Of a DNA stretch of 64,000 nt, positions 12,582 to 29,622 are shown in pieces. The notes under the pieces were generated by a model that did no database searches, was not told the DNA's origin, and worked only from the letters and a program-made list of their open reading frames with translations. Origin of the DNA: Bacteroidales bacterium (lineage in GTDB: Bacteria; Bacteroidota; Bacteroidia; Bacteroidales; UBA932); NCBI GenBank assembly GCA_016285175.1, contig JAEEQF010000001.1, positions 32,099 through 96,098 of the forward strand, in the 5' to 3' direction. Numbering within the stretch: position 1 is the first letter of the stretch; the number at the start of each line of letters is the position of its first letter. Both the position numbers and the translations under genes were made by a program.

Positions 12582-13649
12582 TTGGCAGTACGGCCATTTT
12601 TTCGTAAATTGGCGGAAATAAACAGAGCCTTAACCGATACGAGACCGTCCATAACCCTTCTTACCTCCCTGCTGCTATCCGCACTGGTCCTTTCCGGCTG
12701 CGGCACTTCCCGCATGGCCGTCCAGGGCGAGGAAGGCTTCAAATTCTGGCTGGAGCGCAGCTATGAGTCCGAGGGGTATCAGCAGGACCGCGTGATGCTG
12801 GTGGATCCGCAAGGGGATGCCATGCTAATCCGGAAACTGGACACGGCCTTTGTAAAACTGGCTTCGGCCTTTTTCCACCAGGACCTGCCCCAGGCCGTAT
12901 CGGACAGGGAAAGAAAGGCCGGAGAGGCCGATTTCAAAATTGGGAAAACCTATTCCCTTGACAATGAGCTGCTGCTGGAACAGTTTGCCGATATCATCCG
13001 CCGGAACTATCCTGCCATTTCGCCGTACATCGGGGAAGAGCATGTATGGTCTCCAGAGGCTAAAGTCTATAATCTGTATGGCTACTGGCACCGCCTGTGG
13101 AGAAGGTTCTCCGGAAAGCAGCAGGACTTCCCCATCCCCGTTTTCATGCGGAGCAAACTGCTCATGTGCCTGGCCTGCGGCTGGACTTCCCGCTACTGTA
13201 TAACCGGGACGGAAGAAGCTCTGAAAGAGAGGATTATGAGCTATCCCGACCATAGCCTGCAAATCCACGAACTCTTTGCCGAAAGCTATGTCCTGAACCA
13301 GGGGAACCTGTATATGACGCTCCTCTCCTGCGAGAATGTGCTCACCGGCCAGCCCCACCGGGCAGAGCGGGAATTCGATCCGCTCCAGCAGAAACTCTCC
13401 TACATCCGGAACGACTCAAAACCGCTGGGCGACAACTACGGCGCCTGGTACCATTTCTTCGGCATCGCCCTCTATGGCATGCTCCGGCCGCAGTTTGTCT
13501 CCACCTTTGTGGCCAATACGGAAAGCCTGGGTTCCTTCTTCATGGAAGGGCCGGACCGGCAGGAAACCCTCATCAACTATTACGGAGCCCTTTTTGGCAA
13601 AGAGCTCCGTAAAACCATCAAGAAAGGAAGCTGGCGACAGGCTCAATAG
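12582..13649 (+). CDS. hypothetical lipoprotein
   Basis: 355 aa. The only in-frame start before the lipobox (LVLSGCGT) is the TTG at 12582. No family recognised. The 3' end overlaps the convergent GDPD gene by 7 nt. Confidence 0.5.
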   Translation: MAVRPFFRKLAEINRALTDTRPSITLLTSLLLSALVLSGCGTSRMAVQGEEGFKFWLERSYESEGYQQDRVMLVDPQGDAMLIRKLDTAFVKLASAFFHQDLPQAVSDRERKAGEADFKIGKTYSLDNELLLEQFADIIRRNYPAISPYIGEEHVWSPEAKVYNLYGYWHRLWRRFSGKQQDFPIPVFMRSKLLMCLACGWTSRYCITGTEEALKERIMSYPDHSLQIHELFAESYVLNQGNLYMTLLSCENVLTGQPHRAEREFDPLQQKLSYIRNDSKPLGDNYGAWYHFFGIALYGMLRPQFVSTFVANTESLGSFFMEGPDRQETLINYYGALFGKELRKTIKKGSWRQAQ

Positions 13650-14989
13650 CCCAGACGCTCCAGCGTAGCCACCGGATCCGGAACCGCCGCCGGGGCCGAT
13701 GCGCTGCGGAGCCCGTGGTCCAGCAGGTACTGGAGGGTAAGGTCCGAACGGTTGGTGAAAAAGCCGTCGGAACGGGAAGTCTGCTCCTCCATCTGTATCA
13801 CGGAATCAAATGAATAAGGATGGTTGAGCATGCCGGCTTTCCGCACCAGGGCGGCCTGCCAGGCATTGTTAAGCTCCGAATAATTGTTGGGTTCGCCGGA
13901 AATGGACGGTCCGCTGATGCTGGCGCCGTTGGCCTTGGCCCAGTCCAGGATGGCCTGGAAGCCTTCCGGCGTATCCAGGTCACCGCCGGGAATCTCTTCC
14001 GGGCAAGGCGGCCACAGGAGGAAGCACATGGGAAGCTTTCCCTTGAAAACGGCATTGGCACGCACCAGGGACGCCGGAGAGAAGGTTTGCAGGATCACCT
14101 TGCCGGCGGTCTTTCCCACCTGCACCTTGCCATCCTTGTAGAATTCCTTCTCCGTGGCGGGGGAAGTGATGATGTTCCACCCTGCGGCATCCAGGATGTC
14201 GTACACCCGCCGTTCCATGTCCTCCGGATTCACCTCCGGCTCCTTGAATTCGATATAGATGCCGGGCCGATGGCCTCCGTCGGCAGGGTCGGCCTCATAG
14301 GCAAGCGAGAAGTCATAATCCAGCATTTCCATGTATTTCCCGCCCTCGGCGGCCGTGGAGCGGATATCGGAGAGGGTTTTCCCTTTGCAGGAATCCTTCA
14401 GTTTCCAGGGCAAGACGCGATGGCCGTCGGCATCCCGGCGGAGCCGCTTTCCCTCGGCATAGGCAATCTGGTCCTGCAAGGCCGATACATACTGGCTGCG
14501 CGCAAAGGCCTCACGCGCCTGCTCCGGCCGTGCGGCATTGAACCAGGAACCGGCATCCAGCATGAGCAGTTCTGCATAATAATAGGAGGCGGCGAAATAA
14601 GGCTTGAAAGCTTCCCGGTCCAGGGAAAGCTGCTCATCGGCATCGGCCTGGGAGAAGCCCAGGGACAGGTAGAAATCCCTCCGCGAAGCCGGCACACCGG
14701 CCCCGAAGACCTCTTCAATGTTGGTGGTGCGGGTAAGGTTCACGTCGTGATTGGCCAGGATGATACCGTCCTTGGTGCACTGGAGGTCGCTTTCCAGATA
14801 GTCCGCGCCCATTTCACGCGCCCAGCGCCAGGCGCTCTCCGTCTCTTCCGGAGCCCAGTAGGTGGAACCGCGATGGGCCATTACGGCATAGGCAGGTACA
14901 TTTTCATTTACAGTAAGGGGACTTGGCTGCTCCGCGCAGGAGACAAGCGCCGCAATCCAGGCCAGCCCGGCAAGACGTATCAGTTTCAT
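13643..14989 (-). CDS. glycerophosphodiester phosphodiesterase family lipoprotein
   Basis: GDPD motifs AHRGSTYWAPEETESAW and ESDLQCTKDGIILANHD. Trimmed from the track's TTG at 15082 to the ATG at 14987-14989 (MKLIRLAGLAWIAALVSC lipoprotein signal), because the extension contains the promoter box. Confidence 0.8.
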   Translation of the reverse strand: MKLIRLAGLAWIAALVSCAEQPSPLTVNENVPAYAVMAHRGSTYWAPEETESAWRWAREMGADYLESDLQCTKDGIILANHDVNLTRTTNIEEVFGAGVPASRRDFYLSLGFSQADADEQLSLDREAFKPYFAASYYYAELLMLDAGSWFNAARPEQAREAFARSQYVSALQDQIAYAEGKRLRRDADGHRVLPWKLKDSCKGKTLSDIRSTAAEGGKYMEMLDYDFSLAYEADPADGGHRPGIYIEFKEPEVNPEDMERRVYDILDAAGWNIITSPATEKEFYKDGKVQVGKTAGKVILQTFSPASLVRANAVFKGKLPMCFLLWPPCPEEIPGGDLDTPEGFQAILDWAKANGASISGPSISGEPNNYSELNNAWQAALVRKAGMLNHPYSFDSVIQMEEQTSRSDGFFTNRSDLTLQYLLDHGLRSASAPAAVPDPVATLERLGY

Positions 14990-15003
14990 AGTATCTGTTT
15001 TTG

Positions 15004-15011
15004 CAAAGATA
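15004..15011 (-). promoter_or_regulatory. -7 promoter box (TAtcTTTG) for the GDPD gene
   Basis: Minus strand reads CGTATCTTTGCAA, 14 nt upstream of the ATG at 14989. Confidence 0.5.
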
Positions 15012-15071
15012 CGAAAAATGCCGCAAAACCATGTGAGGGGGCTAAAAGTTGCTTTTCTAGAAGAAAAGTAG

Positions 15072-15079
15072 TACCTTTG
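15072..15079 (+). promoter_or_regulatory. -7 promoter box (TAccTTTG) for the DUF3575 locus
   Basis: AGTACCTTTGCAAA 35 nt upstream of the ATG at 15114. Confidence 0.5.
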
Positions 15080-15113
15080 CAAAATTTTTCGCCGTTAGTA
15101 GTTTGGTTAGGGC

Positions 15114-16109
15114 ATGAATACCATTAAACGATGGTTGGTAGTTATTCTTATGTGCGCTTTTGCCTGGGCATCTCCCCTGGCCATGGCGCAGGATAATTCC
15201 CATACCTCGGAGAAGGATGCATCCAAAGGTCTTTTTGCCTTAAAAACCAATCTCTTGGAGTGGACGGCCGCCATCCCCAACCTCTCCGTGATGGCGGATC
15301 TTTCCGGCAAGCCCTGGAACCGTTCCGTAGCCGCCCTCACACTCAAGTATAAATGGAAGACCAGCGAGACTTACGTCCCTTCCTATATGCTGAACCTCCT
15401 GGAGATCCGCCCCGAATACCGTTATTATCTGAATAACAGATTCTACGTGGGCGGCTATGCGGCGTACAGCAACTTCACCGCCAAACTGCCCAACAATCCC
15501 ACGGGCTGGACGGGTTTTGCCGCAGGCGGCGGCGCCTCGGGCGGAATGGAACTCCCGCTGTACCAATACCGGAAGAGCGCCCTGGATATTGAGTTCGGCC
15601 TCTCCCTGGGAGCCCATTATGCCTTCTACCGGGACTTTACCGCCAACGCCGACCACACCGGCATCGAGATTTCCAGCACCCCCGCCGGGCGCGTCCTTCC
15701 CTATCCGGAACTGCGAGTGGCGCTGGTGTGGCGCAAGACTTCGGTAAAAGACAAGTACAACGAAACCGATCCCATGAAGGCGCTCTATGCCCAGGAAAAG
15801 GAATCCATCCAGATCAACCTGAACGCCACCAACAAAGAGACCTTCGACGCCATGCAGCAGGGGAAGCTGAAATTCTACCAGGATAACATCTTCCACGACC
15901 TGTACCGCAACGACGCCGAAGCCTACCGGGCCGATTATGAGGCCTATCTCCAGGAGAGTTTCGTGGATATGGCCCTGGACAGCGTGGAGCATTCCCGCCT
16001 GGATGAACGCTCCAAGAACAAGCTGCGCAAATGGGTGGAAAGCCTGCGCAAAAAAGCCCTGGCCGATTTTGACAGATCCCTTAAAGCAGAGTTAAATAAA
16101 GTTAAATAA
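15114..16109 (+). CDS. DUF3575-type outer-membrane barrel protein with a ~130-aa charged helical C-terminal extension
   Basis: 331 aa with a signal peptide. FALKTNLLEW...IPNL and RPEYRYY match the DUF3575 hallmarks KTNLL and PExRYW. The C-terminal third is K/E/D-rich (KLRKWVESLRKKALADFDRSLKAELNKVK). Confidence 0.7.
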   Translation: MNTIKRWLVVILMCAFAWASPLAMAQDNSHTSEKDASKGLFALKTNLLEWTAAIPNLSVMADLSGKPWNRSVAALTLKYKWKTSETYVPSYMLNLLEIRPEYRYYLNNRFYVGGYAAYSNFTAKLPNNPTGWTGFAAGGGASGGMELPLYQYRKSALDIEFGLSLGAHYAFYRDFTANADHTGIEISSTPAGRVLPYPELRVALVWRKTSVKDKYNETDPMKALYAQEKESIQINLNATNKETFDAMQQGKLKFYQDNIFHDLYRNDAEAYRADYEAYLQESFVDMALDSVEHSRLDERSKNKLRKWVESLRKKALADFDRSLKAELNKVK

Positions 16110-16112
16110 GTG

Positions 16113-16691
16113 ATGGCACGTCTGAGTAAGGCATATCTCCTGGTGATGGCACTGTTCCTGCTGCTTCCGCTGCAGGCCGGCGCCCAGCGGCTGGCCGTAA
16201 AGACCAACGTGCTGTCCCTTGCCGCAGCCACCCCCCACCTGGGATTTGAAATGGTGACGGGCGAACATGTGAGCCTGTCGCTAAGCGCCTTCGGCAGTTC
16301 CAATCCCTACTGGAGGGACAAATCCCTGGGCGAAGACGTTTCCACCCGCTTTTTCGCCCTGCGCCCGGAAGTCCGATACTGGTTCAACGGACGGCCCCTC
16401 ACGCGTTTTTTCGCCGGTGCAAACATCCTGGCGGGCAGCTATGACTTCCCCCTCTGGGGCACGCTCCATAAGGGCACCCTGGCCGGACCGGGACTGTCGG
16501 TGGGCTATGTCATCAATCTGGGAAAGCGCCTGGACCTGGAGTTCACCTCCGGCGCCGGAGTGCTGTTCTACTGGGGAAAACGCTCTGCCGGCGACGGCTC
16601 CGTCCCCGCGGAGGACAGTCTGCCCAAGACCTGGGGCTACAAACTCACGCCCAACCAGTTAGGCATCACCCTGGTCTATATCATCAAATAA
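16113..16691 (+). CDS. DUF3575 domain outer-membrane barrel protein
   Basis: 192 aa from the ATG at 16113 (the track starts at GTG 16110). Signal peptide, then AVKTNVLSLAAATPHLGFE, RPEVRYWF, GPGLSVGYVINLGKRLDLEF and GITLVYII. Confidence 0.75.
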   Translation: MARLSKAYLLVMALFLLLPLQAGAQRLAVKTNVLSLAAATPHLGFEMVTGEHVSLSLSAFGSSNPYWRDKSLGEDVSTRFFALRPEVRYWFNGRPLTRFFAGANILAGSYDFPLWGTLHKGTLAGPGLSVGYVINLGKRLDLEFTSGAGVLFYWGKRSAGDGSVPAEDSLPKTWGYKLTPNQLGITLVYIIK

Positions 16692-16694
16692 GCT

Positions 16695-19154
16695 ATGGGG
16701 AAGGTCTTCAGACATATCGTTTCGCTTCTTCTCTGCCTGGCAGCCCTGCCGGCGGCCTTTGCGCAGGATATCAAGACCGTGTCCGGCGTAATTACATCGG
16801 CCGAAGACGGCAGCCCCATCTCGGACGGCATAACGGTCTATACGTACATGACCACCGCCGAGGCCCGGGACGACTACAACCGGATCAAGCAGATGCTGGA
16901 AGAGAACAGCCTGGCGGGATATGTCTTCTCCGGCATCCCCAACACCACCCTGGGCAATTACTATTCGGTCCAGGTGGCGGGTACCGGCGCCCTCCTGTTC
17001 TTCTATGAAGACGCCCGCGTGATCAGGATGGAAGAGGTGAAAGGCCGCCTGGAGATCAATGTGGCCCTGAAAGTGGCCCGCCAGATCCAGAGGGCTATCA
17101 TCGAGGCCGATAATCCCAAGCCCTACGTGGTGCTGGAATCCATCCCCATCTCCGGCGACAACGAGATTGCCTCCGAATTCACCTTCCTGTTCTCCGGTGA
17201 CGCGGCCGGCCGGCCGGATGCCCGTTTCGCCATCCAGGCCTACCTGCTGGGAGAGAACCGGAAAGACACCCTCCAGTACTTCCACCCCATCGTCCTGGAC
17301 GGCAAGGATTATCACAAGACCCAGCTCCGGCGGAAAGACTTCAACCCGGAAGAGGATTATCTCTACCAGTGCGCCGAGGAGGCCCCGGACTTCCTCAGCG
17401 ACTCCACCGTGAGCATCACCTACCCCTTCCGCTTTAAACTGGAAAGCCGGGACGATATCCGCTACTTCTGCTACAAGTATTGGATGGAAGACTATAACAG
17501 GGTCTTCGTGCAGGATTCGGCCCAGGTGTTCTCTACCGCCCGCCTGCAGGACCCCATGCAATTCCTGGAATACCAGTTTGACAGCTACAACCTGGATCCG
17601 GACGACTACTTCGTGGACGCCCAGCGGGAACGGCACACCGGCAAGAAGGAACTGCCCCTGCGCTTCATGGTGGGTAAATCCCGTATAGACCCGGCCGATA
17701 CAACCGGTCTCCGCGCCCTGGCGGAGATCAAGCAGGAGATTTCCGATATCGCTTCGGACCGGGATGCCAGCCTGAAGGAACTCTATATCTCCGGCGTAGC
17801 CTCGCCCGAAGGCAACTACAGCAAGAATGTAGACCTGGCAAAGGCCCGCATGAACTACCTGCTGGACAACATCCTCTCCGTCCTTCCCTCCTACAGCCGC
17901 CAGCGGGTGTACCAGAGCGGCACTTCCCGTGTAGCCGGATGGGAAGAGGTGGCCGATATCCTGGAGCGGGATTCGCTGCAGGCCCTCTCCGCCCAGGTGC
18001 GGGAGATAGCCTCCACCTATTCCGGAAAGATGGACAGCCAGTGGGCCCGGGTGCAGCGCCTGCCGGAATACCAGAGCCAGATAGCGCCCCGCCTGCCGGA
18101 ACTGCGCTCCGTATCCTGCACCTACCTTAGTGAAGTATACCGGAAACTGCTTCCGGAAGAAATCCTGGAAAAATACAACAGCGACCCTGAATACCGCAGC
18201 GGCAAGAAAAAGCTTACGCTCAACGAATACTGGAACCTGTACCGGATGCTCAGCGACGAAGAGGAACTGGAGGGACTGTACAAGAGAGGCATCACGGCCG
18301 CCGGGGAGATGAGTTACTTCTGGCCGCTGCCCGCCAACAACCTGGCCGTTTCCTACATCCAGAAAGGCCAGGTGGACACCACGCTGCTGAAGCCCTATCT
18401 CCACGAAGGATATTCCGTGAACCGGCCCATCATGAGCATGGCGGACCCCAACAAATACGAAAGGGTGTGGAATCTGGATCCCATAGTGGCCAACCAGGTT
18501 ATCATGCTGCTGAATGCCAAATCCAGCACCCGTGCCGTATTCTGGGCCACCTACCTCAAGAATCTGCCCCAGTACAACACCCTGTATCACATTGCCCGTT
18601 GCCTGGGCGGATACTATCAGGTGGATAATGAGGAAGGACGTGAAACCTTCCTGGTGGTAAGCCGGTCCTCCACCCGCAACGCCGCCGTCATGAATATGGC
18701 CGTGGGGTCCTGGGCCAATGCGGAGAAGGCGCTGGACGCCCTGCCGCAGGAGGAGGCCCTCACCCAATATATGCGGGCCCAGTTCCTGGCGCGGAAATTC
18801 GGCGGCGGACGCGACTACGGCCGCATGCAGGAGGAACTGTGGGGTATGGACGAGATCGGCCTGGATATCATGGTGTCGGATGCCGCCAAGACCTTCCTCA
18901 AGGAAGCTTTCCGGCAGGATGACAGTTACCGCCTCACGGCACAGAAGGACGCCTACCTGCCGGAAGACCTGGTAGCGGAAGCCGCCCTGGAATGGGCCCA
19001 GGAGCTCAAGGGCGTACCCGGAAAGGAAGAGGCCCTGAAAGATTACCTGGCCACCTGCCTGAGGATGAACCGGAATATGCTCCGGCGCATCCAGGCGGGG
19101 TTCCCGGAAGATATAGTGGACGCAGCCCGCGTGAGGATGAACACATTCGAGTAA
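16695..19154 (+). CDS. large secreted composite protein (CarboxypepD_reg-like N-terminus, DUF3868-like middle, OmpA-tail-like ASPEG motif, helical C-terminal half)
   Basis: 819 aa with a signal peptide (ALPAAFAQD). Contains IKTVSGVITSAEDGSPISDGITV, then ISGVASPEGNYSKNVDLAKARMNYLLDNI, then about 400 aa of helical-repeat-like sequence. Domain assignments are from memory of the families, not from a search. Confidence 0.55.
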   Translation: MGKVFRHIVSLLLCLAALPAAFAQDIKTVSGVITSAEDGSPISDGITVYTYMTTAEARDDYNRIKQMLEENSLAGYVFSGIPNTTLGNYYSVQVAGTGALLFFYEDARVIRMEEVKGRLEINVALKVARQIQRAIIEADNPKPYVVLESIPISGDNEIASEFTFLFSGDAAGRPDARFAIQAYLLGENRKDTLQYFHPIVLDGKDYHKTQLRRKDFNPEEDYLYQCAEEAPDFLSDSTVSITYPFRFKLESRDDIRYFCYKYWMEDYNRVFVQDSAQVFSTARLQDPMQFLEYQFDSYNLDPDDYFVDAQRERHTGKKELPLRFMVGKSRIDPADTTGLRALAEIKQEISDIASDRDASLKELYISGVASPEGNYSKNVDLAKARMNYLLDNILSVLPSYSRQRVYQSGTSRVAGWEEVADILERDSLQALSAQVREIASTYSGKMDSQWARVQRLPEYQSQIAPRLPELRSVSCTYLSEVYRKLLPEEILEKYNSDPEYRSGKKKLTLNEYWNLYRMLSDEEELEGLYKRGITAAGEMSYFWPLPANNLAVSYIQKGQVDTTLLKPYLHEGYSVNRPIMSMADPNKYERVWNLDPIVANQVIMLLNAKSSTRAVFWATYLKNLPQYNTLYHIARCLGGYYQVDNEEGRETFLVVSRSSTRNAAVMNMAVGSWANAEKALDALPQEEALTQYMRAQFLARKFGGGRDYGRMQEELWGMDEIGLDIMVSDAAKTFLKEAFRQDDSYRLTAQKDAYLPEDLVAEAALEWAQELKGVPGKEEALKDYLATCLRMNRNMLRRIQAGFPEDIVDAARVRMNTFE

Positions 19155-19161
19155 AGGAAAC

Positions 19162-22100
19162 ATGAAGGGAAACAATAGGATATCGATGCTGCTGCTTGCC
19201 GCCTGCCTCCTGCTGGGGCCGGCCTTCCGGACCCATGCCCAGGAAGATACCCTCCGGGTAAAGGAAGAACCCGGCATCTTTGACATGAAGATGCAGCACA
19301 GATACACTCCCTCGCACCAGCCCTTCCAGGAGCCTGGCAGGAACGCCTTCCTCCGGATACTGGAGAACAGCAGCATTTCCCTTTCCGGCAGTTACCACCG
19401 CTGGCTGGACCCGGATCTCAGTTCCGGTCCGTCCCTCACGCTTTCCCTGGGAAAATGGGTCTCGCCCACCCACGGCTTCCGGATCGAGGCCGGCACCGGT
19501 TATTTCTTCAACAACGAAAACCGCAGCCGGGTGAAAATGCTCCCGGACATCCGGGTATCCCATCTCTTCAATTTATCGGCCTATCTGGATGGTTACAACC
19601 CCCTGAGGCTGGGAGACCTCTATACCATAGCCGGCGCAGGATACACCTGGCAGTACCATGGCCGGGAAACCGGCAGCTGGACCGCCCAGCTGGGCCTGGG
19701 GTACAGCATGCACATCCTCCGGGGCACCGACCTCTTTGTGGAGCCGGTATGGGAGCTGAACGGCAACGGCTTCGTGCAGCAGCAAGACGGCAACTGGCGC
19801 GGCTATTATGGCGGTTTCCGTGGAAACGTGGGCATCAGCTACCGGATAGACCGCTGGAATCCCCTGCTTGCACCCAAGAGGGAACACCGCTGGTTCCTGA
19901 TGGCCACCGGCGGCCCCGCCTGGCTGGTCTATTCCCCTTCGTCCACGCAGAAGGCTGGTTATCAGGTAACCCTGGGCGCCGGAGAGCGGCTCACCAGAGC
20001 CGTGAGCGTGCGCCTCACCGGGTCCTGGACACAGGCTTTCCTGCCTTCCGATTCCCAGGAACAGGCCCATTACGGAGCCCTCCGCCTGGAAGGCATGCTG
20101 GACCTGTTGGGACTGGGACGGCAGGACGAACGGCCCCTGAGCCTTTCCGTCATGGCCGGCCCGGAAGTAGGCTTCATGGACAGGGCCCAGGCCGATAAGA
20201 ATATTTATGGCCGTATCGGCCGGCTGGGCAGCCAGTTCTACTATGTGGGAGCAACAGCCGGCGTTCAGCTTAACACCCGGATATTCAAGCGCTTCCACGC
20301 TTTCCTGGAGCCCCGTGCCTCCCTGGTTCCCTATACGGTCCTCAATGCGGCCGACAACAAGGTGGAGAATACGCTGGACGTTCTTGTGAGCGCCAACCTG
20401 GGCCTCCAGTATGCCATCCCCACCGTGGAAGACAGAAGAGCCGCCTGGGAGAGGACCAAACAGTGGTCCCGGGACAGTTGGAACAAGACCGTGGAGTGGG
20501 ACCGCCGCACCTGGGATAACCTTAACGAACGCTGGGACAGGACCCGGGAAAAAATGCGGCGTACCGGTCAGCGGATGAACCTCTTCGCCTCGCTGGAAGG
20601 CAGTTACTTCCGTCCGCTGGGACGGGACTTCGCCAACGGTCCCATGGCTTCCCTGTCGCTGGGCACCTGGTTCCATCCGCAGCACGGCGCCATGATCAAT
20701 ACGGGCCTGGGCTACTTCCAGGACCTGCAGTACGGGAACGGCTATGTGAAAACCATGGAGTTCTCGGCCTCCTATCTCTTCAACCTGACTAATTTCGCCA
20801 AGGGATGGGATCCGGACCGCCAGGTGAGCCTGTCGCTGCTTGCCGGTGCCGGATATATGATGCCGCTGAGGGAGAAATGGACCGGATCGGCCATCTTCCG
20901 TACCGGACTGGACCTGCGCATGCACGTACTGCCCCGGACCGATATGGTCGTCCGTCCGGAAATGGATTTCCTCAAGGCTCCGTCGGATGTATGGTCTCCC
21001 GCCCTGCGCGGCACCTTCGGCCTCAGCTACAGCATGGGTGGCGCACCTGTGGCCAACTTCTCCGACAAAGGCAGGGAGTGGTATGTACTGGCGGGCGCCG
21101 GCTTCCAGAACGAAATCCTGCGCCTGGCGAGCCAGAAATATGAAGAGGATCCGTACAGTGAATACCGTATCAATGTGGGCGTAGGCCGAAAATACTCGGC
21201 CCGCATGGACTGGCGGCTTTCCGTATCCTACCTGAGCGAACTCCACAACTACCGGAGCAGCACCTTCGCCCACCGGCTCCGCTTCGCATCCGTGAACATC
21301 GACGCCCTCTATAACCTGGTGGGCGACGAGCTGGTGGACCGGAGATGGTCCCTGTCGCTGGTAGGCGGTCCGGAAATCGGCCTGCAGCATAAGAGCAACG
21401 AGGGCGAGGACATCAAGGGCAGCGGACTCATCTTCCAGCGCAGCACCATATCGGCCTACCTGGGTGTATCGGCCGGTGTCCAGATGAAATACCGCTTCAC
21501 GGACGGATTATCCATCTTCCTGGAGCCCAAATATACGCTGGCACCTTACGTGGCCAGGACCACCACGGGAGACGAAAACTACTATTCCCACGTCTACGGA
21601 ACCAATTTCGGCCTGGAATACGCCTTCGGCCGCAACCGCTATCTCACTCCGGGCATCGGGGAAAAGGAGGCGCGTGAGCGGAAGGAAAGGGCCATCCCCT
21701 ATTTCTTCATCCAGACCACCGGAACCATCATCCGTCCCTTCGGCGCGGGCTACGGCCAGGGTCCGCTCGTGAATGTGGCCCTGGGATACTGGTTCCGCGG
21801 CGCCAGCGGCGTGATGCTGGACTATGGCCTGGGTTACTTCCGGGACAATCAGCTCACCGTGGGGGCCGATGGACGCGAGTACCGTCCCCAGCACATGGCC
21901 ACCATGAGCTACCGGGCCTCCTACCTGCTGAGCCTGTCCCGCCTGGCCACCCGGAATGCCGTGGCCGGCCTCCCCGTGGAGGCGGCCCTGATGGCCGGCG
22001 TGGGCTACATGCTCCCCGAATTCAAGCAGAAGGAAACCGGAACCCTCTCCGCACATGCCGGCTTTGACTTCCGGATCCACGTGCTCCCGGGAACCGACCT

Positions 22101-22830
22101 GGTGGTGGAGCCGCAGCTGGAACTGTTCAAAGACCCGCACGCCATGGTGGACGGCACCCGGAAAGGCCTTGCCGGCGCTTTCAGGGGAACCTTCGGCGCC
22201 AGCTATAACCTGTCCAGGCGTGGCATCTTCCCCGCACAGGATCCCGGAAAGGACTGGTTCATAAATGTTTCGGCCGGTTACCAGAACGAGTCCGGCCGCC
22301 TCTCCGGTCCGGATGCGGAGGATGTCTACCACAACGAATACCGGATTTACCTGGGCTTCGGACGGCGCTATTCCAACGCCTTCAGCCTCCGCCTGGGCGG
22401 CTCCTATTCGGAGATTACCCCGCAGGAGGGCTCGTTCCTGCACAGCCTGCGCTACACCTCCGCCAACCTGGACTTCATCTACGACCTGATGGCCAACGAA
22501 GCGGGTGACAACCGGGTATCCCTGGGCCTGCTCGCCGGTCCCGAAGTGGGCTTTGCCAACAAGAGCCACGGAAAGGCCGGCCAGGAGAATCCCATGACCC
22601 TCCCGCTCAAGATTATGGGCCGGAGGAACCACGGTGTAACGGCCTATGTGGGCCTTTCCGCAGGCCTGCAGTTGAAGGTGAAGGTTGTGGACGGCCTGTC
22701 CCTGTACCTGGAGCAGCGCTACTCCATGGTCCCGTATGTGTCCCTCTACAGCAGCACCGACCACCGGAACATGACCACGCATCTGTGGAATGCCAGCTTC
22801 GGCGTCCAGTATTCTTTCGGCCAGAAATAA
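19162..22830 (+). CDS. 1222-aa outer-membrane protein made of three tandem ~350-375-aa beta-barrel-like modules
   Basis: Signal peptide (LLGPAFRTHAQE). Three colinear modules at about aa 66-420, 473-823 and 847-1222. Each splits into two ~175-aa halves and ends in an aromatic-x-aromatic motif (LQYAIP, LEYAFG, VQYSFGQK). Confidence 0.7.
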   Translation: MKGNNRISMLLLAACLLLGPAFRTHAQEDTLRVKEEPGIFDMKMQHRYTPSHQPFQEPGRNAFLRILENSSISLSGSYHRWLDPDLSSGPSLTLSLGKWVSPTHGFRIEAGTGYFFNNENRSRVKMLPDIRVSHLFNLSAYLDGYNPLRLGDLYTIAGAGYTWQYHGRETGSWTAQLGLGYSMHILRGTDLFVEPVWELNGNGFVQQQDGNWRGYYGGFRGNVGISYRIDRWNPLLAPKREHRWFLMATGGPAWLVYSPSSTQKAGYQVTLGAGERLTRAVSVRLTGSWTQAFLPSDSQEQAHYGALRLEGMLDLLGLGRQDERPLSLSVMAGPEVGFMDRAQADKNIYGRIGRLGSQFYYVGATAGVQLNTRIFKRFHAFLEPRASLVPYTVLNAADNKVENTLDVLVSANLGLQYAIPTVEDRRAAWERTKQWSRDSWNKTVEWDRRTWDNLNERWDRTREKMRRTGQRMNLFASLEGSYFRPLGRDFANGPMASLSLGTWFHPQHGAMINTGLGYFQDLQYGNGYVKTMEFSASYLFNLTNFAKGWDPDRQVSLSLLAGAGYMMPLREKWTGSAIFRTGLDLRMHVLPRTDMVVRPEMDFLKAPSDVWSPALRGTFGLSYSMGGAPVANFSDKGREWYVLAGAGFQNEILRLASQKYEEDPYSEYRINVGVGRKYSARMDWRLSVSYLSELHNYRSSTFAHRLRFASVNIDALYNLVGDELVDRRWSLSLVGGPEIGLQHKSNEGEDIKGSGLIFQRSTISAYLGVSAGVQMKYRFTDGLSIFLEPKYTLAPYVARTTTGDENYYSHVYGTNFGLEYAFGRNRYLTPGIGEKEARERKERAIPYFFIQTTGTIIRPFGAGYGQGPLVNVALGYWFRGASGVMLDYGLGYFRDNQLTVGADGREYRPQHMATMSYRASYLLSLSRLATRNAVAGLPVEAALMAGVGYMLPEFKQKETGTLSAHAGFDFRIHVLPGTDLVVEPQLELFKDPHAMVDGTRKGLAGAFRGTFGASYNLSRRGIFPAQDPGKDWFINVSAGYQNESGRLSGPDAEDVYHNEYRIYLGFGRRYSNAFSLRLGGSYSEITPQEGSFLHSLRYTSANLDFIYDLMANEAGDNRVSLGLLAGPEVGFANKSHGKAGQENPMTLPLKIMGRRNHGVTAYVGLSAGLQLKVKVVDGLSLYLEQRYSMVPYVSLYSSTDHRNMTTHLWNASFGVQYSFGQK

Positions 22831-22929
22831 AAAAGCGCCAAAATTCTTACACTTTTTAGGGAAACAGGTGGTTTTCCAAATAATTATGTGTAACTTGGTG
22901 CCCCGAAACTAACAACCTATTAAACAATA

Positions 22930-24834
22930 ATGAAAATCAACTCAGCCGATGCTCTTGAAAGCATCAGACGGGAGGCCGCCCTGGCCCTGGCCGTCAGGGA
23001 GGAGAGCAACCTGGCCGTGAGCGAGCAGTCCTGCGGTCTGGAAAAAGGAACGCCGCATATGCAGATCCTCTGCTGCGGCGGTACGGGTTGCAAAGCCTCC
23101 GAAAGCGCAAAGATCGTTGAGAACTTCCGCTCCAGCCTCGCCGCGCACGGCATTGCCGACAAGGTGGAAGTGCTGGTTCCCGGTTGCTTCGGCTTCTGCG
23201 AAAAAGGTCCCATCGTAAAGATCATTCCGGACAATACCTTCTACACTTCCGTCCATCCGGAAGACGTGGAAGAGATTGTCACCTCCCACATCATCGGCGG
23301 GAACAGGGTGGAGCGGCTCCTTTACCTGGACCCCGGAAGCGGAAAGCACATCAGCGACTCCAAGCACATGAATTTCTACCGCAAGCAGCTGCGGATCGCC
23401 CTCAGGAACTGCGGTTTCATCGATCCGGAGAACATCCTGGAATACATTGCACGGGACGGCTACAAGGCCCTCTCCGACAGCCTGAACCGGGACAGCCTGG
23501 ACGTGCTGGCCGATATCAAGGCCTCCGGCCTCCGCGGCCGCGGCGGCGCCGGCTTCCCCACAGGCGTGAAGTGGGAGATCGCCCGCAAATTCGACGCCCC
23601 CCACAAGTATGTGGTGTGCAATGCCGATGAAGGGGACCCGGGCGCCTTCATGGACCGTTCCATCATGGAGGGAGACCCCAACTCCGTGATTGAAGCCATG
23701 ATGATCTGCGGTTACTGCATCAACGCCAACCATGGCCTTATCTATATCCGTGCGGAATATCCGCTGGCGGTGCACCGTCTGCAGGTGGCCATCTCCCAGG
23801 CCCGCGAATACGGCCTGCTGGGAGACCATATCCTGGGTACGGACTTCTGCTTCGACATTGAAATCCGTTACGGCGCGGGCGCCTTCGTCTGCGGCGAGGA
23901 AACCGCCCTCATCCATTCCATGGAAGGAAAGCGCGGCGAACCCACCCTCAAGCCCCCGTTCCCGGCCGAGGCGGGTTATTTCGGCTATCCCACCAACGTG
24001 AACAACGTGGAGACCCTGGCCAACGTACCCGTCATCCTCACCAAGGGTCCCCAGTGGTTCTCTTCCATCGGCACGGAGAAATCCAAGGGCACCAAGGTAT
24101 TCGCCCTGGCCGGCAAGATCAATAACGTGGGCCTCATCGAAGTGCCCATGGGTACCACCCTCCGCGAAATCATCTACGATATCGGCGGCGGCGTAAAGGG
24201 CGGAAAGAAGTTCAAGGCCGTGCAGACCGGCGGTCCCTCCGGCGGCTGCCTCACGGAAAAGCACCTGGACATCCCCATCGACTATGAGAGCCTGGCGGCT
24301 GCCGGTTCCATGATGGGCTCCGGCGGTATGATCGTGATGGACGAGGACGACTGCATGGTGTCCGTGGCCAAATTCTTCCTGGAATTCACCGTGGGCGAAT
24401 CCTGCGGCAAGTGCACGCCCTGCCGTATCGGCAACAAGCGGATGCTGGAAATCCTCACCCGCATCACGGAAGGCCGCGGCAAGATGGAAGACATCGACAC
24501 GCTGGAAAACCTGGCCAAGGTGATCAAGGACACGGCCCTGTGCGGTCTGGGACAGACCTCCCCCAACCCGGTCCTTTCCACCATAGCCAACTTCCGCGAC
24601 GAATACGAGGAGCACGTGAAGGACCATATTTGCCGGGCCCGCAAGTGCAAGGCCCTGCTCACCTACAGCATCGACCCGGTGCTGTGCAAAGGCTGCAGCG
24701 CCTGCGCCCGCGGCTGCCCCGCCGAAGCCATCGCAGGCGAAGTCCGGAAACCCTTCGTCATCAATCCCGAAAAGTGCATCCGCTGCGGCATGTGCCTGAG
24801 CCGGTGCAAGTTTGGAGCTATCCGCGTAATCTAA
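22930..24834 (+). CDS. hydB: [FeFe] hydrogenase NADH/FMN-binding subunit (NuoF-like, HydB)
   Basis: 634 aa. N-terminal thioredoxin-like 2Fe-2S region (CCGGTGC...GCFGFCEKGP), GRGGAGFPTGVKW, ESCGKCTPCR, and a C-terminal 2x[4Fe-4S] region (CKGCSACARGCP, CIRCGMCLSRC). Confidence 0.85.
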   Translation: MKINSADALESIRREAALALAVREESNLAVSEQSCGLEKGTPHMQILCCGGTGCKASESAKIVENFRSSLAAHGIADKVEVLVPGCFGFCEKGPIVKIIPDNTFYTSVHPEDVEEIVTSHIIGGNRVERLLYLDPGSGKHISDSKHMNFYRKQLRIALRNCGFIDPENILEYIARDGYKALSDSLNRDSLDVLADIKASGLRGRGGAGFPTGVKWEIARKFDAPHKYVVCNADEGDPGAFMDRSIMEGDPNSVIEAMMICGYCINANHGLIYIRAEYPLAVHRLQVAISQAREYGLLGDHILGTDFCFDIEIRYGAGAFVCGEETALIHSMEGKRGEPTLKPPFPAEAGYFGYPTNVNNVETLANVPVILTKGPQWFSSIGTEKSKGTKVFALAGKINNVGLIEVPMGTTLREIIYDIGGGVKGGKKFKAVQTGGPSGGCLTEKHLDIPIDYESLAAAGSMMGSGGMIVMDEDDCMVSVAKFFLEFTVGESCGKCTPCRIGNKRMLEILTRITEGRGKMEDIDTLENLAKVIKDTALCGLGQTSPNPVLSTIANFRDEYEEHVKDHICRARKCKALLTYSIDPVLCKGCSACARGCPAEAIAGEVRKPFVINPEKCIRCGMCLSRCKFGAIRVI

Positions 24835-24843
24835 GAGTGCCCT

Positions 24844-26604
24844 ATGGAAAACATGATTAACCTTACCATCGACAACCGTCCCGTGTGTGTTCCCAAAGGA
24901 ACCACCATCCTGGATGCGGCCGCTTCCGTGGGAATCGACATTCCCGCCCTGTGCCATCTGGACCTCAAGGGCACCTGCGTAAAGAACACCCCCGCTTCCT
25001 GCCGCATCTGCGTGGTGGAAGTTCAGGGCCGCCGCAACCTGGCCCCTTCCTGCGCCACACAGGTAATGGAAGGCATGGTTGTGAACACCAATTCGGCCCG
25101 TGTGATCCGCGCCCGGAAGACCGTGGCGGAGCTCATCCTGTCCGACCATCCCAACGACTGCCTCACCTGCCCCAAGTGCAACCACTGCGAACTGCAGAAA
25201 CTGGTGACCCGTTTCAACATCCGTGAGATGACCTACAAGGGCGAACAGTCCACCCGCAAGAAGGAACAGACCCTGGCCATCACCCGCAACATGGACAAGT
25301 GCATCCTCTGCCGCCGCTGCGAAAGCGTTTGCAACAATGTCCAGAGCGTGGGCGTGCTGGGTGCCGTCCGGCGCGGTTTCGACACCACCATCGCCCCCAC
25401 CTTCGACCGCATGTTCTCGGAGACGGACTGCACCTACTGCGGCCAGTGCGTGGCCGTATGCCCCACCGGCGCCCTCACCGAGCGGGACAATACGGACCGC
25501 CTGCTGGAAGACATCTGCAACCCCGACAAGGTGGTGATCGCCCAGCCGGCTCCCGCCGTGCGCGTGGCCCTGGGAGAGGAATTCGGCTATGAGCCCGGCA
25601 CCATCGTGACCGGAAAACTGGCCACCTCCCTCCGCCGCCTGGGTTTTGACTATGTCTTTGACACGGACTTTGCGGCCGACCTTACCATCATGGAGGAAGG
25701 TTCGGAAATCCTTCACCGGCTCAAAGCCTTCCTGGGCGGAGACAAGAGCGTGAAACTGCCCATCATGACCTCCTGCTGCCCGGCCTGGGTGAACTTCTAC
25801 GAGCACAACTTCCCGGACCTGCTGGAGTATCCTTCATCGGCCAAATCCCCCGCCCAGATGTTCGGCGCCATCGCCAAGACCTACTGGGCCCAGAAGATGG
25901 GCATCCCGCGGGAGAAGCTGGTGGTCGTCTCCATCATGCCCTGCCTGGCCAAGAAGTTCGAATGCGAACGCGAAGAATTCAAGGTGGACGGCAATCCGGA
26001 CGTGGACTACAGCATCTCCACCCGTGAACTGGCCCGCCTGATCAAGCGCTCCAACATAGATTTCCGCACCCTGGAAGACTCCGACTTTGACAAACCCCTG
26101 GGAGAGAGTTCCGGTGCGGCCGTGATCTTCGGCGCCACCGGCGGCGTAATGGAAGCGGCCCTGCGTACCGCCTACGAATTATACACCGGAAAGACCCTTC
26201 CCCGCATCGAATTCCACGAAGTCCGCGGTCTGGAAGGCATCAAGGAAGCCACCATCGACCTGGACGGATTCCCGCTGAAGGTGTGCGTGGCCCATACCCT
26301 GGGCAACGCCCGGTACCTGATGGACAAGCTCCGTGCAGGAGAACTGGATTACCATGTGGTGGAAGTGATGGCCTGCCCCGGCGGCTGCATCGACGGCGCC
26401 GGACAGCCCTACCACCACGGGGATGTGGAAATTATCAAGGCGCGCGCAAAGGCCATCTATGCCGAAGATGCCGGAAAGCCCATCCGCAAGAGCCACGAGA
26501 ACCCCGATATCCAGAAACTGTACAGGGAATTCCTGGGCGAGCCGCTGAGCGAGCGCGCACATCACCTCCTCCACACCTGTTATTCCGATAAAACCATCAA
26601 GTAG
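24844..26604 (+). CDS. hydA: [FeFe] hydrogenase catalytic subunit (HydA, M3-type architecture)
   Basis: 586 aa. H-cluster motifs TSCCPAW, MPCLAKKFE and EVMACPGGCIDGAGQP. The N-terminus has a 2Fe-2S domain and ferredoxin-like Cys clusters. Confidence 0.92.
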   Translation: MENMINLTIDNRPVCVPKGTTILDAAASVGIDIPALCHLDLKGTCVKNTPASCRICVVEVQGRRNLAPSCATQVMEGMVVNTNSARVIRARKTVAELILSDHPNDCLTCPKCNHCELQKLVTRFNIREMTYKGEQSTRKKEQTLAITRNMDKCILCRRCESVCNNVQSVGVLGAVRRGFDTTIAPTFDRMFSETDCTYCGQCVAVCPTGALTERDNTDRLLEDICNPDKVVIAQPAPAVRVALGEEFGYEPGTIVTGKLATSLRRLGFDYVFDTDFAADLTIMEEGSEILHRLKAFLGGDKSVKLPIMTSCCPAWVNFYEHNFPDLLEYPSSAKSPAQMFGAIAKTYWAQKMGIPREKLVVVSIMPCLAKKFECEREEFKVDGNPDVDYSISTRELARLIKRSNIDFRTLEDSDFDKPLGESSGAAVIFGATGGVMEAALRTAYELYTGKTLPRIEFHEVRGLEGIKEATIDLDGFPLKVCVAHTLGNARYLMDKLRAGELDYHVVEVMACPGGCIDGAGQPYHHGDVEIIKARAKAIYAEDAGKPIRKSHENPDIQKLYREFLGEPLSERAHHLLHTCYSDKTIK

Positions 26605-26606
26605 CC

Positions 26607-27086
26607 ATGAGTGAGATTAAAGTATCCTGCGAGGCGCTCCGCCAGGTGGAGGAGATCTGCCGCAAATTCCATAACGACCCCGGTGAACTCATTACCATCC
26701 TGCACGAAACCCAGAACACCCTGGGCTATCTGCCGGAGCCGGTACAGCGGGTGATTGCCCGCGAACTGGGCATATCGGCCCAGAAGGTCTATGGCGTAGT
26801 TACCTTCTACTCCTTCTTCTCCATGGTTCCCAAGGGCAAGTATCCGGTGTCCGTATGCCTGGGCACGGCCTGCTATGTCCGCGGTTCGGACAAGGTGCTG
26901 GAAGAATTCAAGCGCGTGCTGGGCATCGAGGTGGGCGAGACCACCCCGGACGGCAAGTTCTCCCTGGACTGCCTTCGCTGCGTGGGTGCCTGCGGCCTGG
27001 CGCCGGTGGCCACCATCGGCGAGAAAGTCTATGGCCGATTGAATCCCTCCGACATCAAGAAGATTGTTGCCGAGTTCGAGGATTAA
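26607..27086 (+). CDS. hydC: [FeFe] hydrogenase 2Fe-2S subunit (NuoE-like, HydC)
   Basis: 159 aa. CLGTACYVRG...CLRCVGACGLAPV is the thioredoxin-like 2Fe-2S pattern of NuoE/HydC. Confidence 0.85.
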   Translation: MSEIKVSCEALRQVEEICRKFHNDPGELITILHETQNTLGYLPEPVQRVIARELGISAQKVYGVVTFYSFFSMVPKGKYPVSVCLGTACYVRGSDKVLEEFKRVLGIEVGETTPDGKFSLDCLRCVGACGLAPVATIGEKVYGRLNPSDIKKIVAEFED

Positions 27087-28132
27087 GGAAGGGAAACCCT
27101 TTCCAGCATCCCCTGCAACCGGGCGATAGCGATTCCGTAATTGGTGATGGGCACTCCCGCAAGGAGTGCCTTTCTTATGCGGGAACGCACCAGGGCGCCG
27201 CCAGCCACACAGGCGCCGCAGTGGATGATTAGGCTGTAAGGCGACAGGTCTTCCGGGAAATCGTTCCCGGCAGCGATATCGATGGAAACGGCCGCTTTCC
27301 TGCGGAGCAGCACAGGAATCTTTACCCGGCCGATATCTTCCGTATCTGGCACATGGGTGCAGGCTTCGGCAATGAGCACATGGTCTCCGTCCTTCAGGCG
27401 GCCGATGGCCCCGGCTCCTTCCACAAACGCCCGAATATCCCCCTTCATCGCCGCCAAAAGGATGGAAAAGGAGGTGAGCGGCCACTCCGGAGGAATGGTC
27501 TGGTTCACCAGTTTAAACACCTGGGAATCCGTAATTACCAGATTGGGCGTCATGTCCTTAAGCGCAGCAGGCAGCGATTCCGGAGTGCAGCACACCGGAA
27601 CGCAGCCGCGGTCCAGCAGTTCCCGGAGCACCTGCACCTGCGGCAGGATGAGACGGCCTTTGGGTGCCTCGCTGTCCTGCGGCATTACCAGCAGCACCTT
27701 GTCACCGGCTTTCACCAGATTCCCGGTGAGGTATTTCTCCTGCTCCCCGGGGGCGGCGGCCGCAAGCTGTTCCAGCAGGGACTCCCTGCTCTGCCCCCGT
27801 GCGTAACGCACCACGGGAATGCCGGCCCGTTCCAACTCTCCCATCAGGCTGGGGATGACAGGATCCAGAACCACGGCTAAATCCGTTTCGTCCAGGATGC
27901 GGCGAGTAAGGCGGGAGCGTTCAGGGCCCAGGACCCCCGCATCGTCCAAGCCGGCCGTATCTATGAGCACGCAGGGCCCCAGACCGGGCAGTTCGATAGC
28001 CTTCCGCACCGGGTCCGTGGTTGTGCCCGGCACAGGGCTCACCAAAGAAACCTCCTGACCGGCCAAGGTATTGACCAGCGTGGATTTCCCGCTGTTGGGA
28101 GGGCCGAAGAACGCTATGTGGAGCCTTTCCAT
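27083..28132 (-). CDS. hydF: [FeFe] hydrogenase H-cluster maturation GTPase HydF (compact form)
   Basis: 349 aa. G1 GPPNSGKS, G3 DTAG, C-terminal cluster-binding CTH...HCGAC. No NKxD/TKxD G4 motif is visible. Confidence 0.8.
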   Translation of the reverse strand: MERLHIAFFGPPNSGKSTLVNTLAGQEVSLVSPVPGTTTDPVRKAIELPGLGPCVLIDTAGLDDAGVLGPERSRLTRRILDETDLAVVLDPVIPSLMGELERAGIPVVRYARGQSRESLLEQLAAAAPGEQEKYLTGNLVKAGDKVLLVMPQDSEAPKGRLILPQVQVLRELLDRGCVPVCCTPESLPAALKDMTPNLVITDSQVFKLVNQTIPPEWPLTSFSILLAAMKGDIRAFVEGAGAIGRLKDGDHVLIAEACTHVPDTEDIGRVKIPVLLRRKAAVSIDIAAGNDFPEDLSPYSLIIHCGACVAGGALVRSRIRKALLAGVPITNYGIAIARLQGMLERVSLP

Positions 28133-28135
28133 GTG

Positions 28136-29551: not shown

Positions 29552-29583
29552 AGCTAAGAGGTTATCGTCTTTTTTTGTTTACG

Positions 29584-29591
29584 CAAAAATA
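29584..29591 (-). promoter_or_regulatory. -7 promoter box (TAttTTTG) for hydG-hydF
   Basis: Minus strand reads CACTATTTTTGCG about 33 nt upstream of the hydG ATG. Confidence 0.45.
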
Positions 29592-29614
29592 GTGATTTAC
29601 CCGCAAAAAATCGC

Positions 29615-29622
29615 TATTTTTG
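29615..29622 (+). promoter_or_regulatory. -7 promoter box (TAttTTTG) for the sugar kinase gene
   Basis: CGCTATTTTTGCAGG 20 nt upstream of the ATG at 29643. Confidence 0.5.

Follow-up and report, generated by a model that had tools for sequence, protein, structure and literature searches.

The 64,000-nucleotide stretch of DNA analysed here (hereafter the window; positions 32,099 to 96,098 of contig JAEEQF010000001.1, assembly GCA_016285175.1, an uncultured Bacteroidales bacterium of the gut or rumen, UBA932 lineage; G+C content approximately 59%) carries a locus of four adjacent genes at positions 15114-22830. Genes 1 and 2 are predicted to encode outer-membrane barrels of the DUF3575 family, gene 3 an exported periplasmic protein of several domains, and gene 4 a single chain of small barrels. 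We give an even chance to the reading that these genes are an operon for a cell-envelope structure and not for a fibre, namely a patch of small outer-membrane barrels that is referenced to the cell wall. Genes 2 to 4 recur side by side in relatives, both within and outside operons for Mfa-type (type V) pili, and we refer to this set of a short DUF3575 gene, a gene-3 homologue and a poly-barrel gene as the triad.

Four adjacent envelope genes under purifying selection

The four open reading frames (ORFs) all lie on the + strand and are separated by gaps of 3, 3 and 7 nucleotides. Gene 1 (15114..16109) encodes 331 amino acids, gene 2 (16113..16691) 192 amino acids from the ATG at 16113 or 193 from an alternative GTG start at 16110, gene 3 (16695..19154) 819 amino acids, and gene 4 (19162..22830) 1222 amino acids. 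Read by eye from the sequence, the N-termini of all four products look like signal peptides for signal peptidase I; each ends in A|Q, as such peptides usually do in Bacteroidetes. A promoter box of the Bacteroidetes -7 type, TACCTTTG, is located at 15072..15079 on the + strand, 35 nucleotides 5' of the gene 1 ATG, and is a consensus match only. It is the sole + strand TAnnTTTG from 15011 to 29615. The window as a whole is mildly enriched in this motif (23 found against 14.9 expected), so the single TACCTTTG box is weak, suggestive evidence. The short gaps of 3 to 7 nucleotides and the one promoter-like box suggest that the four genes are co-transcribed as one operon. In the original prediction, made from the window sequence alone, the locus had been described as four co-directional signal-peptide genes behind such a box. 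The strand, the gaps and the signal peptides all agree with that description, and the box is where it was said to be, though it carries little weight alone.

All four genes are maintained under purifying selection. The ratio of nonsynonymous to synonymous substitution rates (dN/dS) was calculated against two relatives carrying the same four genes, L003 and L010, and was 0.06-0.16 for gene 3 (0.064 against L003) and 0.15-0.33 for the three barrel genes (0.15-0.24 for gene 1). Amino-acid identity to L003 and L010 is 93% and 77% for gene 3, and 57-79% for the products of the three barrel genes. Judged by these sequence comparisons, the periplasmic gene 3 protein is the most constrained of the four and the membrane proteins evolve 2-4 times faster. 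The ORFs are evidently not chance reading frames, having homologues at 25-99% identity and dN/dS values of 0.06-0.33.

Predicted architecture of the four proteins

The products of genes 1 and 2 match the Pfam family PF12099 (DUF3575) at 48.1 and 108.4 bits, respectively, relative to a curated cut-off of 21.1 bits. The match covers residues 40-179 of gene 1 and the full length of gene 2, and a whole-genome scan for DUF3575 recovers both genes too. Both proteins contain the motifs of the family (KTNLL/KTNVL and RPEYRYY/RPEVRYW), as had been pointed out in the assignment first made for them, and they are homologous to one another (hhalign 98.9%). Gene 1 consists of a barrel (residues ~40-215) followed by a charged C-terminal tail of approximately 115 amino acids. 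This tail was at first thought to be foreign to the family, a view that does not hold, as it is common to the long DUF3575 proteins found at the head of pilus operons. Residues 8-329 of gene 1, tail included, align to the 487-amino-acid head protein of the relative L011 (BLAST, E 8e-43), and gene 1 falls in a clade of long DUF3575 forms (support 100/99) as sister to those of L006/L013 (98/96). By sequence, then, gene 1 is assigned as an orthologue, over its whole length, of the long DUF3575 protein that heads Mfa-type pilin blocks. The short, gene 2-type DUF3575 adjoins a gene-3 homologue in all loci recovered by searches with the gene-3 and barrel profiles. The same genome also contains a fourth, very divergent DUF3575 gene (192 amino acids; contig C131:6191-9129, L008), which sits between genes for a 545-amino-acid protein and a 254-amino-acid lipoprotein-like protein, neither of which has a Pfam match.

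Gene 3 encodes the most conserved protein of the operon. An AlphaFold2 (AF2) model of it, built on a 21-sequence alignment, has a mean predicted local distance difference test (pLDDT) score of 82.5. The model opens with a CarboxypepD_reg-like beta-sandwich (residues 26-125; 16770..17069, + strand) that is also identified by profile matches as an N-terminal extension of the SusC type. A TonB-box-like segment, IQRAIIEAD, follows (residues 132-140; 17088..17114, + strand), aligned with the SusC TonB box LxEVVVxG/A, and then a further beta-sandwich (residues 145-280), an OmpA-C-like alpha/beta domain (residues ~312-481; 17628..18137, + strand) and an all-helical solenoid resembling tetratricopeptide repeats (TPR; residues 487-815; 18153..19139, + strand), the last recognised from the secondary structure of the model and a fold match to IFIT1. 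Low-confidence stretches are found at residues 129-143 (pLDDT <50), which overlap the TonB-box-like segment, and at residues 150-154.

The middle domain of gene 3 was matched by Foldseek to the C-terminal domains of OmpA, OprF and PorE (4rha, 5u1h, 3td5, 4erh, 5nhx and 6top, the last being PorE), with a probability of 1.0 and template modelling (TM) scores of 0.5-0.65 normalised to the target. Across the gene-3 family the motif G-x-x-S-P-E-G-x4-N-x2-L-x3-R is invariant (G367-x-x-S-P-E-G373, N378, L381 and R385 in the window protein), so that the Asn, Leu and Arg of the OmpA signature are kept. The canonical OmpA-C residues, including the Asp and Arg that bind diaminopimelate, are those reported for 3TD5. 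Gene 3 has no lipobox. Its lone Pfam match, DUF6852, is below the cut-off (7.6e-4), and Pfam gives no match to Plug or TonB_dep_Rec. The partner gene had been likened to DUF3868 in the original prediction, and here that label fails: gene 3 has no DUF3868 match even at E<=0.1. NCBIfam has no match for any of the four proteins, and a sequence search of the PDB with the gene-3 and barrel-unit profiles returned chance-level matches plus a weak one to the N-terminus of SusC.

This resemblance to SusC was recovered within the genome itself. A profile of the gene 3 N-terminal region matches SusC-like ORFs of ~1050-1080 amino acids in the same genome (E 1.7e-8 and 5e-8, down to 1e-5), and the L005 homologue of gene 3 matches PF13715 at 2.6e-10. 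In the gene-3 family, homology to the SusC N-terminal extension and TonB box extends over the first 120 residues, and the alignments continue through LDEVVVVGY. One could therefore envisage gene 3 as a TonB-coupled periplasmic adaptor through which the TonB-ExbBD motor of the inner membrane acts on the barrels, so that the complex would be energised and not a static tether, a reading that is compatible with a wall-referenced patch and that draws on this homology, on the motifs LEEVVVTA or NEVVVAA kept at the TonB-box position in distant family members, and on the overlap of the segment with a low-confidence stretch of the model, as is seen for TonB boxes. We regard it as unlikely. The motif has diverged to IQRAIIEAD in the window protein, gene 3 has neither a plug nor a 22-strand barrel, no tonB or exbBD lies beside any locus examined, and homology of the domain alone does not show that the interaction has been kept.

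Gene 4 has no Pfam or NCBIfam match and is predicted to contain 48 strands. Its sequence is made of three internal repeats of ~380 amino acids (29-37% identity, E 2e-38 to 5e-81), the halves of each repeat being themselves homologous (hhalign 99.7%, E 2.6e-24), and the structural model has 48 strands plus helical linkers (pLDDT 70, predicted TM score 0.48). A hidden Markov model (HMM) of the module delimits six modules of 166-200 amino acids on the + strand: module 1 (residues 60-233; 19339..19860), module 2 (236-423; 19867..20430), module 3 (464-629; 20551..21048), module 4 (630-826; 21049..21639), module 5 (838-1021; 21673..22224) and module 6 (1023-1222; 22228..22827), which ends in ...FGVQYSFGQK. 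The description of gene 4 as a multi-barrel protein, made before any of these searches, is in keeping with the 48 predicted strands and the six matches of the module HMM.

The number of modules among relatives of gene 4 is 2, 3, 4, 5, 6, 7 or 8, and the odd counts (3, 5, 7) argue for independent eight-strand units. Barrel closure was assessed by mean-field covariation over 988 non-identical modules from 208 proteins of the family. The top covarying pairs are dominated by neighbouring strands, and pairs linking strand 1 to strand 8 appear at ranks 27 (positions 14-171, ~5.8 standard deviations) and 86 of 15225, which is a moderate signal. There are also many covarying pairs across the lumen (S3-S7, S4-S7, S1-S6 and S5-S8), a pattern that closed narrow barrels would be expected to give. 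Homology, module counts and this moderate covariation favour a model of gene 4 as six closed, narrow, eight-stranded barrels over one of three 16-stranded barrels. A fold search with the whole gene 4 model returned only generic outer-membrane barrels, with TM scores of 0.08-0.17 and a root-mean-square deviation of ~30 A. The search cannot give the size of the gene 4 barrels. Gene 4 was also considered as a chain of DUF3575 barrels, and this was ruled out (modules against DUF3575, hhalign probability <8%).

The results of the same fold search are the one point in favour of the barrels being a transport route, for porin-like uptake or for export of a surface molecule, with gene 3 as the periplasmic partner, as the only structures matched are outer-membrane transport barrels such as TonB-dependent receptors and LptD. 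We consider a transport route very improbable. At the TM scores given above the matches reflect a generic likeness among barrels, and no enzyme, ABC transporter or glycosyltransferase is conserved beside the triad. The modules are of ~175-200 amino acids and 8 strands with covariation across the lumen, and the interiors of the barrels would be packed, because eight-strand modules of this size show cross-lumen contacts.

Modules 2 and 3 of gene 4 are joined by a helical linker rich in Arg, Asp and Glu (residues 421-470; 20422..20571, + strand), modelled as helices at 397-420 and 425-446 of the mature protein. The linker is a charged helix with a Trp each 5-7 residues, and its length varies widely among homologues of gene 4; it is nearly absent in the forms of 1140-1158 amino acids.

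Relation to type V pilus operons and distribution

The absence of a fimbrillin gene, a central claim of the original prediction, was borne out. A pilin HMM built from Pfam-verified Mfa_like_1 proteins found no match on the contig that holds the window (C121), and no FimA/Mfa-class pilin is among the top 50 fold matches of the gene 3 and gene 4 models. Pfam scans of the four proteins and their neighbours did not find an anchor gene (FimB, Mfa2 or DUF5119-like) either.

The locus had also been contrasted with pilus loci, and this contrast stands only in part: the pilin gene is absent, but the locus is related to pili, as its nearest relatives have these genes on either side of a pilin block. In L006/L007, a 36%-identical homologue of gene 3 lies inside an Mfa-type locus and is followed by a 429-amino-acid gene that corresponds to one gene 4 repeat (hhalign 100%, E 8.7e-46). 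The order of genes in such pilin-linked loci is a long DUF3575, a DUF5119-like gene, three to six Mfa_like_1 genes, a short DUF3575, a gene-3 homologue and a protein of 2-3 barrels. This layout was found in L006, L012-L014 and L016-L021, with the L012 sequence breaking off within the gene-3 homologue and only one DUF3575 gene detected in each of L017 and L019. In L011, the neighbours of the triad are a pilin-like gene and a long DUF3575 gene in divergent orientation. Carriers of pilin-linked loci include Bacteroides gallinarum DSM 18171 (L016), B. cutis Marseille-P4118, B. propionicigenes NSJ-90 and Mediterranea massiliensis. The clade of the window is nested (100/99) among pilin-linked loci in the gene-3 tree. 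Compared by gene order, the quartet looks like a pilus operon without its pilin block and with the barrel chain expanded from 2-3 to 6. The simplest reading is that the anchor-and-pilin block, located in the relatives between the long and the short DUF3575 gene, was lost in this lineage. Such a direction of change is likely but unproven, because the trees are unrooted and imply 2-3 switches of pilin linkage overall.

The link to pilus operons raises the possibility that the quartet encodes a dedicated platform on which type V pili are based, anchored or assembled, and which here would act in trans on Mfa-like pilins from other loci of the genome. Such pilins are present on two other contigs of this genome (C129 and C161), Mfa-type operons end with the triad in cultured Bacteroides as well as in many metagenome-assembled genomes (MAGs), and gene 1 is orthologous to the operon head; moreover, we know of no outer-membrane machinery identified for type V pili. 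We nevertheless hold a pilus platform to be doubtful, on several grounds. At least 20 triad loci, including all 10 recovered with the barrel profile, have no pilin gene in their flanks (up to ~10 kb). The pilus locus on C129 owns an OmpA-DUF3575 fusion and a DUF5119 anchor-like gene. Eight-stranded barrels offer no channel for a pilin. Finally, the number of barrel modules differs systematically with context, from 2-3 in pilin-linked loci to 4-8 in pilin-less loci (L001-L024 and L055-L064, uncorrected for phylogeny), which suggests a changed role in the latter. The C129 locus (C129:17000-31939, L009) is of the Mfa type and encodes, besides the fusion (458 amino acids) and the DUF5119 protein, several Mfa_like_1 pilins. 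It adjoins two AraC-type regulators and a 340-amino-acid OmpA-like protein that is a weak match to the gene 3 profile.

The four genes stay together in relatives despite different flanks, being found as a quartet in L001/L002, L003, L004 and L010, in line with the neighbourhood conservation expected of a genuine unit. The L004 quartet is distant (gene 4 at only 25% identity). Adjacency was counted over loci with the downstream region present and a barrel protein of at least two modules. The triad is adjacent in every such locus recovered with the gene-3 profile (14 of 15, the sequence of L012 stopping within its gene-3 homologue). An independent search of 301 genomes of the order with the barrel profile gave 10 multi-module barrel proteins, and the triad is adjacent at all 10. 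Homologues of genes 3 and 4 are confined to uncultured Bacteroidales and a few cultured Bacteroides, and the triad occurs across many Bacteroidales families. Matches at E<=1e-20 come from 13 of the 301 genomes sampled across the order, and 11 of these, counting the genome of the window, encode a multi-module protein. A wider search with a one-repeat profile of gene 4 yielded 1981 clusters (50% identity) among 1.84 billion representatives, 410 of them at E<=1e-30; the 150 best matches listed have lengths of 417-2889 amino acids and 1-11 matched stretches. Weak single-module matches of ~380-400 amino acids (L065, L066 and same-genus proteins) were set aside as they have no DUF3575 or gene-3 neighbours.

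Within the GTDB genus of the window, the long form of gene 4 was found in 2 of 25 species. This patchiness, together with the nested position of the window's clade among pilin-linked loci, could mean that the locus is what is left of a pilus operon, decaying and functionless in itself. Such a remnant is scarcely credible, and the selection data largely refute it. The four frames are intact and conserved at 25% to 99% identity with dN/dS of 0.06-0.33, the barrel chain has been expanded and not eroded, and pilin-less triads recur in many families.

Some related loci depart from the layout of the window. In L063:4571-14595 and L064:6221-16867, an enlarged variant comprises a 749-881-amino-acid protein with a DUF3575 part, then a short DUF3575, a gene-3 relative of 1117-1144 amino acids and a protein of 6-7 barrels. 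In another species of the same genus, the barrel unit gives several weaker matches within a 1904-amino-acid open frame (G019:C1:20440-25056), which is probably a longer multibarrel of a different subfamily.

The locus is bounded by a GDPD gene on the minus strand on one side and by a cluster of NuoF-like hydB, [FeFe] hydrogenase, HydF and HydG on the other, the GDPD and hydB neighbours being those named originally. A divergent promoter-like box, TATCTTTG (15011-15004, - strand), faces the upstream GDPD gene. The mechanical ORF call places this gene at 13643-15082 (- strand) with a TTG start at 15082. From the sequence, the more likely start is the ATG at 14990, which is preceded by TATCTTTG, and the divergent promoter region would then be 123 nucleotides long. 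On the other side, the 99-nucleotide interval ahead of hydB is A+T-rich and contains a near-match to the promoter motif, TAACTTGG; a terminator-like hairpin was not found in this interval. In L003, the closest relative, whose gene 3 product is 93% identical, the hydA-hydC / hydF-hydG-hydE cluster is also present but has the quartet on its other flank. Comparison of window positions 22930-29551 with L003:4-5724 indicates a local rearrangement, of either the cassette or the hydrogenase block, that left the four genes together.

Proposed function and comparison with known systems

The arrangement that we favour, at even chances, is a wall-referenced raft in the outer membrane. The two DUF3575 barrels and the chain of six narrow, pore-less, eight-stranded barrels would be placed in the outer membrane, and the exported 819-amino-acid gene 3 protein would be located in the periplasm. 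There, its OmpA-like domain may grip peptidoglycan, while its TPR-like solenoid and N-terminal domains could keep hold of the barrels, and of gene 1 by its helical tail. The outcome would be akin to an OmpA that has been split and multiplied, or to the PorP-PorE anchor of type IX secretion. As to origin, the module would be the accessory component of type V (Mfa-type) pilus operons, which in this lineage lacks the anchor and pilin genes and has a longer barrel chain. We infer that the four proteins associate physically, bind peptidoglycan and have a structural role. This accords with the suggestion in the original prediction of an uncharacterised envelope assembly without fimbrillin: no pilin fold is seen in gene 3 or gene 4, and synteny is conserved.

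Several points weigh against the raft. The case for co-transcription consists of the 3-7 nucleotide gaps plus a single promoter-like box. The fold matches of gene 3 to OmpA domains have modest E-values (2e-3 to 2e-2), the position of the canonical diaminopimelate-binding Asp is occupied by S370 (motif ASPEG), followed by the invariant P371-E372, and Pfam OmpA (PF00691) does not match gene 3 at E<=0.1. Peptidoglycan binding by gene 3 is uncertain because of this change from Asp to Ser and the lack of a Pfam OmpA match. The gene 4 model is only moderately confident, and the choice of six eight-stranded over three 16-stranded barrels draws on homology, counts and moderate covariation. As to the direction of change, pilin linkage must have changed 2-3 times on the trees, and L004, a distant quartet, lacks pilin genes as well. 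Lastly, the operon is present in only 2 of 25 species of the genus, and is for that reason dispensable or accessory. A different construction can be put on the pilus link and the SusC-type domain, in which the triad is a wall-anchored base of type V pili, coupled to TonB-ExbBD by gene 3, that has been retained and enlarged as an energised device in pilin-less lineages. We find this construction quite unlikely.

All of the parts are of known or predicted kinds (DUF3575, poly-8 multibarrels, an OmpA-like fold and a SusC N-terminal domain). Poly-8 multibarrels were described by Solan, Pereira, Lupas, Kolodny and Ben-Tal as a superfamily restricted to Bacteroidetes, with 2-11 barrels and shaped by amplification and deletion of modules (Solan et al., PNAS 2021, PMC8346858). 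In the part of that article considered here, the study is purely computational and gives no function, and the gene context of the poly-8 families is not discussed (PMC8346858). Gene 4 likely belongs to this published class, being matched to it by description and not by accession. Like the poly-8 proteins as described there, it is a single chain of tandem eight-stranded modules in Bacteroidales; new here, relative to that part of the article, are the tie to pilus operons and the constant presence of two operon partners, namely a DUF3575 barrel and an OmpA-like/TPR protein. Our search of the literature on DUF3575, DUF3868 and multibarrels found annotation tables and the 2021 paper only, with no functional study, and no account of the constant triad, of its position at the end of Mfa-type operons or of the pilin-less, barrel-expanded form.

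The locus and its relatives tie together the multibarrels, predicted in 2021 with no function or context, and the question of how type V pili, for which no outer-membrane apparatus of assembly or anchoring is known in the dominant gut phylum, are anchored in the envelope. In these loci the multibarrel is always accompanied by a DUF3575 barrel and a periplasmic protein of a wall-binding type, and the triad either closes a pilus operon or stands alone with more barrels. The locus is thereby a handle on two questions, namely the role of multibarrels and what holds type V pili in the envelope. Many such loci exist, and the one in the window brings no new component; it is useful as a clean case of a pilin-less locus with six barrels in which the head gene of the pilus operon is retained. 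The cultured carriers (Bacteroides gallinarum DSM 18171, B. cutis and B. propionicigenes) open the question to ordinary genetics.

Among known envelope systems, the tethers formed by OmpA, Pal and PorP-PorE are similar in that the operon, too, combines outer-membrane barrels with an OmpA-C-like fold, and the C-terminal domain of PorE (6top) is among the fold matches of gene 3. PorE has TPR, CarboxypepD_reg-like and OmpA-C-like domains and is paired with a barrel protein. The window differs from these tethers in that different polypeptides carry the barrel and the wall-binding fold and the barrels are multiplied, and in that gene 3 has its pocket Asp replaced, no lipobox and no Pfam OmpA membership. 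Transporters of the SusC type share with gene 3 the opening CarboxypepD_reg-like domain followed by a TonB-box-aligned segment, but gene 3 has no plug, 22-strand barrel or SusD partner and its motif has diverged. Type V pilus operons (mfa1-5 and fimA-E of P. gingivalis, and the DUF3575-headed operons of Bacteroides) are similar to the locus at both ends: gene 1 is orthologous to the head protein, and genes 2-4 are orthologous to the closing three genes in B. gallinarum, B. cutis, B. propionicigenes and Mediterranea. Unlike them, the window and its contig have no gene for an anchor, a stalk or tip pilin or a lipoprotein pilin precursor, and the barrel protein has 6 modules here compared with 2-3 in the pilus operons.

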